From Escherichia coli (GTDB lineage Bacteria > Pseudomonadota > Gammaproteobacteria > Enterobacterales > Enterobacteriaceae): 64,000 nucleotides of DNA. The position numbers and the translations under genes were made by a program. Positions 8,288 through 13,155 of this stretch are shown here, in pieces. Each line of letters begins with the position of its first letter. Position 1 is the first letter of the stretch. The notes under the pieces are model-generated. The model was given only the letters and a program-made list of their open reading frames with translations, searched no databases and was not told the origin of the DNA. Where the stretch lies: NCBI RefSeq assembly GCF_003334305.1, contig NZ_QOWS01000020.1, one strand, 5' to 3'.

Positions 8288-9424
8288 ATGGATTTACTGA
8301 TTATTTTGACCTATGTGGCTTTTGCATGGGCAATGTTTAAGATCTTCAAAATTCCCGTAAATAAATGGACCATTCCCACAGCGGCCCTGGGTGGAATATT
8401 TATTGTCAGCGGTCTAATTCTGTTAATGAACTATAACCATCCGTATACCTTCAAAGCGCAAAAAGCGGTTATTTCTATTCCTGTTGTCCCACAGGTGACA
8501 GGCGTGGTGATCGAAGTGACGGATAAGAAAAATACGCTGATTAAAAAAGGTGAGGTGCTATTTCGACTGGACCCGACGCGTTATCAGGCGCGGGTGGATC
8601 GGCTGATGGCGGATATCGTTACCGCAGAACATAAACAGCGGGCGTTGGGCGCAGAGTTAGATGAGATGGCGGCGAATACTCAGCAGGCAAAGGCCACGCG
8701 GGATAAATTCGCTAAAGAGTATCAGCGTTACGCACGCGGCAGCCAGGCGAAAGTAAACCCGTTTTCAGAACGCGATATTGATGTGGCGCGGCAAAATTAT
8801 CTGGCGCAGGAAGCCTCCGTAAAGTCATCGGCGGCGGAACAAAAACAGATCCAGAGCCAGCTGGATAGCCTGGTGTTGGGTGAACATTCTCAAATCGCCA
8901 GCCTGAAAGCGCAGCTCGCGGAAGCAAAATATAACCTTGAGCAGACGATAGTGCGTGCGCCGAGCGATGGTTATGTGACCCAGGTGCTGATTCGTCCGGG
9001 TACCTATGCCGCGTCGCTGCCGCTACGTCCGGTGATGGTGTTTATACCCGATCAGAAACGACAAATTGTGGCGCAGTTCCGTCAGAACTCCTTGCTGCGA
9101 CTGGCCCCTGGCGACGATGCGGAAGTGGTGTTTAACGCTCTGCCAGGCAAAGTGTTCAGCGGTAAGCTGGCAGCCATTAGTCCAGCTGTTCCCGGCGGAG
9201 CTTATCAGTCGACCGGCACCTTACAGACGTTAAACACAGCGCCGGGTTCAGATGGCGTTATCGCGACCATTGAACTGGATGAGCACACTGATTTGAGCGC
9301 TTTACCAGACGGTATTTACGCCCAGGTGGCGGTCTACTCTGATCATTTCAGCCATGTCTCGGTGATGCGCAAAGTGCTGTTACGCATGACCAGTTGGGTG
9401 CATTACCTTTATCTCGATCATTAA
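8288..9424 (+). CDS. yiaV: membrane-fusion (HlyD/EmrA-family) periplasmic adaptor protein
   Basis: 378 aa; N-terminal TM anchor then long coiled-coil-type region; synteny with yiaW. Confidence 0.85.
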
Positions 9425-10395
9425 TCTTCGCTTTCCGCCGCTTGTTCAGGCCGCAGTTGCTGCGACTGAGCAAGCTGGTGGCGAATTTCACGCAGCATTT
9501 CATCCAGCACATACTGGACCCGCCAGGGCTGGTATTCCCGTTTACGGAAGATAGCCACCAGATCCAGCCACCATTCATACGGGTGCTGAAAGCAGGGCAC
9601 CAGCGTGCCGTCTTGCAGATCGCTCTGCACACTTTTGTCTGGCGCAAACACAATCCCCAGGTGATTTCGTGCCAGCTCCAGCGCCGATTGCGTGTTATCG
9701 CAAACGTAATTTCCCTTCACGCGATAATCCCGCACCTCTTTACTCCCGGCGACGTTGAAGCGCCAGATATTCGCGTCATCAATCATCATCGAGTCGATCA
9801 AAATACAGGAGTGATGTTCGAGTTCGTCAGGACGGCTAATAGGATGTTTCTCAAGATAGCGCTGGCTGGCATAAGCGGTTACGGCATATTGGGTAATAAA
9901 ACTGGCAACCAGCGATTCATCTTTTGGTGGAGCGTAGCTGATTAAAACATCACAATCATCAGGAAATTCGACGCCTTCATAAAAGGCATTACGCTCAAGA
10001 TTGCAGGTTTTTAGCGATAAGGTGATATCACCGATATCTTTAATTTTATCGATTACATGTTTGGATAAATAGGTAATTATGCCGGTTGGGGCGTAGATGG
10101 TGACCCGACCACGTTTCTCATGCTTATAATCTGCAATAAAATTATTAAGCTGCTCGTTTCTGTCCAGCATGTCGTTGATGTACGGTAACAGCGCGGTGCC
10201 AAAAGGTGTGAGCATCAGTTGTCGGGTGGTTCGGTCAAAAACTTTTAAACCCACTTTTGATTCAAAATCAGCAAGATATTTGCTGACGTTGGCCTGTGCG
10301 ATGCCAAGTACAGTCGCGGCATGGCTGATATTTTCACTGGCAGCGATTACCGAGATAATTTTTAACTCCCGGTACTTAAGTTGTAATTTTGTCAT
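9421..10395 (-). CDS. yiaU: LysR-family transcriptional regulator
   Basis: 324 aa; N-terminal HTH typical of LysR; 3' end overlaps yiaV 3' end by 4 bp. Confidence 0.85.
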
Positions 10396-10518
10396 CGCAA
10401 CAGCCCAATTATATATAATTTTATATATTACTATATAAATATGAATCTTGCATCGGAGAAATTGTAAGCATTATTATGCCGACTCTTTTTTATCTTATTT
10501 TAAAATGGAATACCGGAC

Positions 10519-11259
10519 ATGTTAATTAATCGCAATATTGTGGCGTTATTTGCGTTGCCTTTTATGGCAAGCGCAACTGCTTCTGAATTATCCATTGGTG
10601 CTGGTGCAGCTTATAATGAATCGCCTTATCGCGGTTATAATGAAAATACAAAGGCAATTCCGCTGATTAGTTATGAAGGTGATTCTTTTTATGTTCGTCA
10701 GACCACATTAGGTTTTATTCTGTCGCAAAGTGAAAAAAATGAACTTAGCCTGACCGCATCCTGGATGCCGCTGGAATTTGACCCTGCCGATAATGACGAT
10801 TATGCCATGCAACAGCTTGATAAGCGTGATAGTACGGCTATGGCGGGGGTTGCCTGGTATCACCACGAGCGTTGGGGAACCGTGAAAGCCTCTGCGGCTG
10901 CGGACGTTCTGGATAACAGCAACGGCTGGGTGGGGGAGCTATCGGTATTCCACAAAATGCAGATAGGTCGCCTGTCGCTGACACCTGCGCTGGGCGTTCT
11001 CTATTATGACGAGAATTTCAGTGACTATTACTATGGCATTTCAGAGAGTGAGTCCCGTCGTAGCGGTCTGGCAAGTTATTCCGCGCAGGATGCCTGGGTG
11101 CCCTATGTCAGCCTGACGGCAAAATACCCGATAGGAGAGCACGTCGTATTGATGGCGAGTGCAGGATACAGCGAGCTGCCGGAAGAGATTACCGACAGCC
11201 CGATGATTGATCGTAATGAGAGTTTTACCTTTGTCACCGGCGTGAGCTGGCGTTTTTAA
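10519..11259 (+). CDS. yiaT: outer-membrane protein, MipA/OmpV family
   Basis: 246 aa with signal peptide (MLINRNIVALFALPFMASATA) and C-terminal aromatic residue (…VSWRF). Confidence 0.8.
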   Translation: MLINRNIVALFALPFMASATASELSIGAGAAYNESPYRGYNENTKAIPLISYEGDSFYVRQTTLGFILSQSEKNELSLTASWMPLEFDPADNDDYAMQQLDKRDSTAMAGVAWYHHERWGTVKASAAADVLDNSNGWVGELSVFHKMQIGRLSLTPALGVLYYDENFSDYYYGISESESRRSGLASYSAQDAWVPYVSLTAKYPIGEHVVLMASAGYSELPEEITDSPMIDRNESFTFVTGVSWRF

Positions 11260-11605
11260 TTCACCGGTGGATGTCGGTGCGGCTGGTGCTCCGTCGTAAT
11301 GCCACAAAGGTTGTTGCTCTGGATTGCTCTGTTCATACCGGGAACCTGGCGTCTGAATCAGGATCTTATGGCTGAACAATCCCTTGCCTTCAAATGTCGT
11401 AAATGGCGCATCGGCGGGCAGCAACAGGTTATGCAGTGACTCGACGTTGTCGGCCTGCTCCATGCAATACGGTTTAATGACGTTGGCTATTTCCGGCAGA
11501 TTTTTCGCAAGCACACCGGTTTAACGCCAGCAGCGTGGAAGCGGCGTTACAGCAAGGAACATATCAATTCGTAGTGCCGGGGCGATGAAGCCCCGGCGTG
11601 AGGGA

Positions 11606-12301
11606 TTACTGCCCGTAATAGGCATTGGCCCCATGCTTACGCAGGTAGTGCTTATCCAGCAGTTCGTTTTGCATCGCAGGGAGCTGCGGCGCAAGCTGGC
11701 GCGAGAATAGGCCCATATAGGCGCATTCTTCGAGTACTACGGCGTTATGCACGGCATCGGCGGCGTTTTTACCCCATGCGAACGGGCCATGAGAATGCAC
11801 CAGCACCGCCGGGATTTGTGCCGGACTCCTGCCACGTTCTTCGAAGGTTTCAATGATCACTTCGCCGGTCTGATATTCATATTCGCCGTTAATCTCCTCT
11901 GCGGTCATCTGTCGCGTGCAGGGGATGGCACCATAGAAATAATCAGCGTGCGTGGTGCCCCAGGCGGGGAGATCCAGCCCGGCCTGCGACCAGATGGTGG
12001 CGTGGCGTGAGTGGGTATGCACAATGCCACCGATTTCGGCGTAGCGACGGTAAAGCGCCAGATGCGTTGGCGTGTCGGACGAGGGCTTTTTGCTACCTTC
12101 CACCACCTTGCCGCTGGCTATCTCAACCACCACCATATCGTCGGCGGTCATCACGTCGTACTCGACGCCGGAAGGTTTGATTACCATCCATTGCCGCGTG
12201 TCGTCTACCGCGCTGACATTGCCCCAGGTGAACGTCACCAGATGGTGAGCGGGAAGCGCCAGATTCGCCGCCAGCACGTCGGCTTTCAGTTGCTCTAACA
12301 T
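11606..12301 (-). CDS. sgbE: L-ribulose-5-phosphate 4-epimerase
   Basis: 231 aa class II aldolase/epimerase; last gene of yiaK-S operon. Confidence 0.85.
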
Positions 12302-13155
12302 ATAAATCCAGCCTCCTGCATACGCGCTTCAATCCAGCGCCGCGCCTGAATGATCTCCAGCACCGGCTCTTTGGCTTTTTCGGTCCACATCTCAATCAGG
12401 AAAGAACCGCGATAGTTCAGTTCATGCAGCGTTTTGAAGATGCCAACGAAATCGACGCAGCCTTCGCCAAACGGCACATCACGGAACTGTCCGGGGCTTT
12501 GCCCGGTGACTGGCTGGGTGTCTTTCAGGTGGATCGCGGCGATACGGTCAATGCCCAGTTTCAGTTCGGCGGGAACATCATTGCCCCAGGCGCTGAGGTT
12601 GCCGACGTCCGGGTAGACGGTGAACCACGGCGAGGCGAGCATCTCGTCCCATTTTTTCCATTTGCTGATGGAGTTCATAAACGCTGTATCCATAATCTCC
12701 ACCGCCAGCATTACTTGTGATGCCGCCGCCTGTTCGACTGCCCACGCCAGCCCTTCAGCAAAACGTTGCCGGGTGCCTTCGTCGTGGTCTTCGTAATAGA
12801 CGTCATAACCTGCCAGCTGGATGGTGCGAATGCCGAGATCGCGCGCCAGGCGAATCGCTTTACTCATGATTTCCCGCGCCCGTTCGCGCACTGCCTCGTC
12901 ACGGCTACCAAAAGGAAAGCGACGATGTGCGGACAGGCACATCGACGGGATCCCAACACCCGTTTCGATCATCGCGGCAACCAGCGAAGTCCTTTGTGCG
13001 GTGCTCCAGTCAAGACGTGAAAGCCGTTCGTCGGTTTCATCCACCGACATTTCGACAAAATCAAAACCGCAGCTTTTTGCCAGCACCAGCCGCTCCGGCC
13101 AGGAGAGATCTTTCGCCAGCGCCTTTTCATAAATCCCTAACGGATGATTACGCAC
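12295..13155 (-). CDS. sgbU: putative L-xylulose-5-phosphate 3-epimerase
   Basis: ORF track extends to 13245; trimmed to GTG 13155 ([14 protein letters not shown]...) which overlaps sgbH stop by 8 nt; 286 aa. Confidence 0.8.

Follow-up and report, generated by a model that had tools for sequence, protein, structure and literature searches.

The genes yiaT and sgbE run towards each other on the chromosome of Escherichia coli, and in the window analysed here, a 64-kb stretch of E. coli DNA to whose numbering all positions refer, they are held apart by 346 nt (11260-11605). Why should such a junction contain a spacer of this length, and what is the origin of the open minus-strand frame and the perfect G+C hairpin found in it? 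An earlier note on this DNA, made from the letters alone, had pointed to these three features, all of which we confirmed, and had left two explanations side by side, a gene remnant or a small unannotated gene. From comparisons with intact versions of the locus, we estimate a probability of roughly nine in ten that the spacer is a deletion scar rather than a gene. The scar is made of two annotated pseudogene fragments and an ancestral intergenic stem-loop, and the finding is already known, since both fragments are annotated in E. coli K-12 as ysaC and ysaD. The elements of the region are as follows.

10519-11259, plus strand: yiaT, MipA/OmpV family outer-membrane protein, left flank (ORF list; annotation of a 100% identical record and of K-12)
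11041-11514, minus strand: the open frame of the earlier note, GTG start, 157 aa (ORF list)
11260-11286: ancestral spacer retained 3' of yiaT, 27 nt (blastn)
11281-11470, minus strand: internal fragment of a GH127 gene, K-12 ysaD; 190 bp, 63 codons, from within the C-terminal domain (residues 559-621 of 659)
11471-11574, plus strand: 3' fragment of an AraC-family gene, K-12 ysaC; 104 bp, last 33 codons (frame from 11473), TAG stop at 11572-11574
11576-11597: hairpin GCCGGGGC-gatgaa-GCCCCGGC, its loop of 6 nt closed by a perfect 8-bp G+C stem
11606-12301, minus strand: sgbE (L-ribulose-5-phosphate 4-epimerase), which closes the yiaK-S operon; right flank (ORF list; annotation)

A 461-bp query covering 11200-11660 was 100% identical to strain 120899. 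Against K-12, the identity was 98.7% over 551 bp, without gaps and with 7 SNPs, and these strain-level differences indicate that the window is not K-12 itself.

Remnants of two genes between yiaT and sgbE

The intact configuration of the site is found in E. coli EC71 (locus L004), where the order is yiaT(+), GH127(-), a GPH/MFS transporter gene(-), an AraC-family regulator gene(+) and sgbE(-). The three genes enclosed by yiaT and sgbE encode products of 659 aa (GH127), 466 aa (transporter) and 271 aa (regulator). Pfam finds three domains in the intact GH127 protein, the catalytic one at residues 12-427 and Glyco_hydro127C at residues 534-649, and intact E. coli GH127 scores 454 bits against the NCBIfam aceric acid hydrolase model, below its cut-off of 950. 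The transporter is assigned by NCBIfam to the glycoside-pentoside-hexuronide:cation symporter family.

Pieces of two of these genes are present in the window, on opposite strands, a point that the earlier note did not contain. The GH127 fragment is 89.5% identical in DNA to the intact gene, and its translation, stop-free in frame (YCMEQADN...WHYDGAPA), matches residues 559-621 in 56 of 63 positions (E = 3e-38); 63 codons of the frame that had been called an orphan thus come from a known gene, and the gene-remnant alternative was the correct one. The AraC-family fragment is 100% identical in DNA to the intact gene, and its 33 codons give residues 239-271 of 271 without a difference (33/33, E = 2e-23). 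PGAP annotates both as partial CDSs, the former as a 'hypothetical protein' with both termini missing and the latter as an 'AraC family transcriptional regulator' with its N-terminus missing. In K-12 MG1655, ysaC (b4648, 102 bp) and ysaD (b4649, 192 bp) are RefSeq pseudogenes with the same locus, order and strands between sgbE and yiaT, and the GH127 remnant of the window is 100% identical to the remnant in an MG1655-derived record.

As expected of pseudogene remnants, the two fragments match in frame intact genes that occupy the same position between yiaT and sgbE, and they are heavily truncated, with GH127 residues 1-558 and 622-659 and AraC-family residues 1-238 gone. Compared with the GH127 beta-L-arabinofuranosidase family (PF07944 catalytic, PF20736 middle and PF20737 C-terminal domains), the relic in the window is homologous, in frame, to residues 559-621 and retains nothing of the catalytic domain, the middle domain or either terminus; the PF07944 domain (residues 12-427), by which a functional GH127 enzyme would be recognised, is therefore missing. 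Compared with AraC/XylS regulators, the window keeps the identical last 33 residues and the stop codon but has neither a start codon nor the sensor domain. The DNA-binding domain of AraC/XylS proteins is formed by two helix-turn-helix motifs within the C-terminal ~100 residues, so that a fragment without any residue before 239 has this domain incomplete as well. Since the GH127 fragment has no catalytic domain, and the AraC-family fragment has no start and only its last 33 residues, neither of them can perform the function of its family.

The earlier note had proposed to look in the Enterobacteriaceae for a longer intact homologue, and the outcome is positive, the 659-aa GH127 being present at the same site in E. 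coli and in others. A literature search on ysaC and ysaD returned nothing but the use of their junction as a chromosomal reporter integration site in MG1655 (PMC12361893), and a search on yiaK-S, sgbE and yiaT returned nothing on the spacer.

In one strain, E. coli MLI105 (NZ_CP116929.1, L086 488-1300), an IS1A lies against the GH127 remnant, which is cut to 99 bp, and the yiaT side is replaced.

Anatomy of the deletions

The junctions were mapped by blastn of the window against the intact EC71 locus L004, which gave three collinear segments with exact junctions.

Window 11150-11286, L004 774-910: end of yiaT plus 27 nt, 98.5% identity
Window 11281-11470, L004 1121-1310: inside GH127, 89.5% identity
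Window 11471-11700, L004 5332-5561: end of the AraC-family gene, hairpin and sgbE, 100% identity
Window 11470/11471: deletion junction 2 (blastn), window 11470 being L004 1310 and window 11471 being L004 5332

The first junction falls inside a 6-bp microhomology, GGCTGG (11281-11286), which appears as a 6-nt overlap of the blastn segments. The corresponding deletion removed 210 bp between two GGCTGG copies, taking with it the yiaT/GH127 spacer and the last 38 codons of GH127. In the intact locus, this spacer (L004 884-1003) contains, by sequence and predicted fold, a strong hairpin, GTCGGTGCG..CGCACCGAC, and two REP-like palindromes. The deletion begins within that hairpin, of which only the 5' arm GTCGGTGCG is left in the window (11273-11281), so that yiaT in the scar haplotype is without all of the structured elements that lie downstream of it in the intact one; the folding of the yiaT-side spacer in its window version is not in excess (z = +0.16). 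The second deletion, of 4,021 bp, took GH127 codons 1-558, the whole GPH/MFS gene with the divergent promoter region, and codons 1-238 of the AraC-family gene. No microhomology was seen at its junction.

Distribution of the intact cluster and of the scar

Five other genera (Citrobacter, Enterobacter, Lelliottia, Pseudocitrobacter and Huaxiibacter) share the order sgbE–AraC–MFS–GH127–yiaT, which indicates that the full cluster is ancestral and the state of the window derived. Within the species, we surveyed 5,426 complete E. coli genomes by megablast with 11200-11660 as the query. The whole scar was recovered in one piece in 2,461 of them, and the GH127 remnant at an identity of at least 99% in 2,459. 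A GH127 allele of 80-95% identity was present in 2,318 genomes (~43%), and the sampled rows of this class were all annotated as an intact GH127 gene; in other genomes than those with the scar, the two halves of the query matched ~4 kb apart, under an intact GH127 gene and an intact AraC-family gene. About 650 genomes had no GH127 sequence whatever. The identity of at least 99% and the same junctions across 2,459 remnants are consistent with a single origin of the scar.

A third haplotype was observed in E. coli 'clone D i14' (NC_017652.1, L005 6954-6999), where aldB adjoins sgbE across a 46-nt spacer that carries a different G+C hairpin, GCCCGGCG..TGCCGGGC; relative to window 9421-11605, this haplotype is without yiaW, yiaV, yiaU and yiaT, and it is also without the GH127/transporter/AraC-family cluster. 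In Escherichia whittamii (L006 4624-5560), it is sgbE that is gone: a homologue of sgbU (297 aa, ending ..EAGFGE) reaches the position of the sgbE stop, and its end directly precedes the hairpin, which is conserved there and is followed by an intact AraC-family gene. The loss of sgbE in E. whittamii would appear to be an independent deletion at this junction.

Outside the genus, a record labelled Chryseobacterium sp. 18061 (CACSKA010000004.1, L027) has an AraC–MFS–GH127 locus of the enterobacterial type, with a GH127 protein 84% identical to that of E. coli, and the assembly has probably been mislabelled or contaminated. In Bradyrhizobium, several genomes (L076-L085) have a GH127 protein ~71% identical to that of E. 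coli, without AraC-family or MFS neighbours.

Divergence and constraint of the GH127 remnant

The remnant differs from the intact alleles by far more than its surroundings do. Between the window and intact alleles, the GH127 island (11281-11470) is 10.5% diverged and its flanks 0-1.5%, with no difference in 230 bp on the side of the AraC-family fragment and sgbE and 2 in 137 on the yiaT side. The intact E. coli GH127 alleles are all 87.9-90.5% identical to the remnant, and no intact E. coli allele nearer than 90.5% was found. Nor was a closer allele found in other species, the identities being 89% in Escherichia sp. E1V33, 87% in E. whittamii and at most 72% in other genera. About half of the changes in the island are assigned to the intact branch. 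Recombination may have evened out the flanks while sparing the island between the two indel junctions.

We polarised the 20 differences between the remnant and the intact gene with E. whittamii and Escherichia sp. E1V33. The remnant branch received 8 changes, spread 3/3/2 over the codon positions and 6:2 as non-synonymous to synonymous, whereas the 8 changes of the intact branch are distributed 3/0/5 with a ratio of 1:7. The contrast between the branches reaches a Fisher p of 0.04 on 16 polarised substitutions only. The substitutions of the remnant fit a sequence without a selected protein product and indicate, within this small sample, that constraint on the protein has been relaxed. The remnant haplotype is nearly invariant (at least 99%), and therefore data from within the haplotype allow no test of selection on the open frame.

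The minus-strand open reading frame

Judging from its make-up, the 157-codon ORF is the GH127 frame prolonged by chance on both sides. From its GTG onwards it passes through 15 codons opposite the AraC-family fragment, 63 of GH127 and 7 of spacer, and it ends after a further 72 codons, with its stop, on the antisense of yiaT; the earlier note had given ~85 codons before the frame runs into yiaT antisense, and 85 is the number that we counted. The length of the frame is unexceptional, since equally long antisense ORFs occur in the same list, one of 183 aa over yiaU and one of 158 aa over sgbU and its upstream neighbour.

Could the frame, or a shorter part of it, nevertheless be a real small gene that yields a chimeric protein from read-through of the yiaK-S mRNA? 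It is open for 157 codons, it has the orientation of sgbE and lies 91 nt downstream of the sgbE stop, and the hairpin between the two has no U-tract, which makes read-through plausible. However, the frame is pieced together from three stretches of unrelated origin (antisense of the AraC-family gene, a piece of GH127 and antisense of yiaT), and it shows neither of the marks of a small protein-coding gene, a ribosome-binding site and purifying selection: no Shine-Dalgarno-like sequence precedes the GTG at 11514, where an in-frame TAA stands two codons upstream, and the changes on the remnant branch, mostly non-synonymous, are even over the codon positions. The only trace of a protein family in it is that of GH127, as a search of the 157-aa product against NCBIfam gave no family, and the sole Pfam match was a sub-threshold one to Glyco_hydro127C (E = 0.034). 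Moreover, IS1 truncates the frame in one strain, comparable antisense ORFs are common nearby, the region is annotated as pseudogene, and the ysaC/ysaD junction has served for reporter integration (PMC12361893). We regard a real small gene as scarcely credible, and the suggestion of a small unannotated gene does not survive, given that both fragments are annotated pseudogenes (ysaD and ysaC in K-12, partial CDSs by PGAP) and the substitutions of the GH127 remnant look unconstrained.

Structure and conservation of the G+C hairpin

The remaining element of the spacer is the hairpin. The earlier note was right about a perfect 8-bp G+C stem without a T-tract; the start that it gave, 11575, is one base early, the stem beginning at 11576, and a U.G pair can lengthen the structure to 11575-11598. 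It is the sole perfect 8-bp all-G/C stem with a loop of 3-8 nt in the 64-kb window, and a stem of this kind arises in only 0.03% of shuffles of the spacer. As RNA, it folds with -19.9 kcal/mol (z -3.5) on the sgbE strand and with -25.1 kcal/mol (z -4.0) on the other strand.

The hairpin lies 1 nt past the TAG stop of the AraC-family gene and 8 nt past the sgbE stop, within an ancestral convergent gap of 31 nt. In strains with the intact cluster it is identical base for base, and it is therefore older than the deletion and part of the junction between the AraC-family gene and sgbE, an origin that the earlier note had not considered. Within E. coli, the sole variant seen is a change in the loop in one strain. 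In E. whittamii, the hairpin has one compensatory change from G-C to U-A, one improvement from U.G to C-G, and one A.C mismatch; the case for covariation thus comes from one outgroup, in which a single compensatory pair is set against a single mismatch. In Enterobacter, Lelliottia, Huaxiibacter, Pseudocitrobacter, Salmonella diarizonae and some Citrobacter, the AraC-family and sgbE stops are 0-5 nt apart and there is no hairpin, and other taxa have REP elements or other palindromes at its position. Being missing or replaced in other genera, the hairpin is lineage-specific and unnecessary for the gene pair.

In five loci of other Enterobacteriaceae (L010, L028, L032, L051 and L061), REP-type palindromes, e.g., GCCGGGTGGCGCTGCGCTTACCCGGCCTAC, stand right after the AraC-family stop, and it appears that small palindromic elements have repeatedly settled at this gene end.

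This raises the question of whether the hairpin itself is a copy of a dispersed repeat, REP/BIME-like or from a CRISPR, or whether the spacer encodes a small RNA. The REP elements at the equivalent position in several other genera speak for a repeat, and so does a weak Rfam match of the hairpin to CRISPR-DR16 (E = 0.45). However, the hairpin occurs only once in the 64-kb window, also when up to 2 mismatches are tolerated, whereas REP/BIME elements are recognised by their many copies; no repeat array is found at it, and the K-12 annotation has no repeat feature at the site. In an Rfam scan of 10400-12400 (E <= 1), the CRISPR-DR16 match reached 19 bits against a gathering score of 35 and was rejected as chance, and no other RNA family was found. 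A dispersed repeat or a small RNA is, in our opinion, highly improbable.

Possible role of the G+C hairpin

A bidirectional intrinsic (Rho-independent) terminator, serving sgbE and either yiaT or the AraC-family gene, is a more familiar proposal, and a G+C stem of high stability, set between transcription units that converge and so close behind the stops of sgbE and of the AraC-family gene, would suit it. Of the two elements by which such terminators are known, however, only the G+C-rich stem-loop is there; a U-tract 3' of the stem is absent on both strands, where the tails are ACUACGAAUUG (sgbE strand) and GUGAGGGAUUA (other strand). A scan with promoter and terminator consensus sequences did not call the hairpin and gave counts at the expectation from shuffles, and the genera with closely abutting AraC-family and sgbE stops do without the hairpin altogether. 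We consider an intrinsic terminator unlikely.

A protective or pausing role, rather than that of a classical intrinsic terminator, may be inferred from the same properties. The hairpin, already in place before the deletion, most likely forms in the 3' end of the yiaK-S mRNA, as it formerly would have in the mRNA of the AraC-family gene, where a stem-loop without a U-tract could hold up 3' exonucleases, serve as a non-canonical site of termination or pausing, or do both. Stable stem-loops without U-tracts have been described at the ends of Rho-dependent transcripts (PMC6061677). A protective stem-loop of this type would be recognised by a Rho-dependent, steady-state RNA 3' end right behind the stem and by a rut site further downstream. 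The hairpin of the window resembles them in being stable, in lying just past the last gene of the operon, and in having no U-rich stretch, but it differs in that no rut-like, C-rich and G-poor region follows immediately downstream: on the sgbE strand there is no rut-like bias of C over G past the hairpin, the C/G ratio being ~1.1, a value that says little either way. The Term-seq supplements of PMC7815308 have no entries for sgbE, ysaC, ysaD or yiaT.

Meaning of the scar

The extra length of the spacer, its open frame and its hairpin can all be traced to the loss of the GH127/transporter/AraC-family cluster, and taken by themselves they matter little. Their practical consequence is that gene calling should pass over the 157-codon ORF.

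In the scar haplotype, yiaT is without its hairpin and REP block and sgbE has only a hairpin that lacks a U-tract, and hence read-through from the two sides could overlap. It is conceivable, and we think very unlikely, that convergent yiaK-S and yiaT transcripts do overlap across the scar, with antisense interference between them or translation of the 157-codon chimera as the result. If this were true, such interference, here of a sugar operon with a gene for an outer-membrane protein, or else a new protein, would be a side-effect of gene loss in ~45% of E. coli.

For the species, the site represents a polymorphism of three states, namely the intact cluster, the scar, and a larger absence in which aldB stands beside sgbE, and it could serve to mark lineages. 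What the scar documents is that a function encoded beside the yiaK-S operon, probably the utilisation of beta-L-arabinofuranosides, has been lost.
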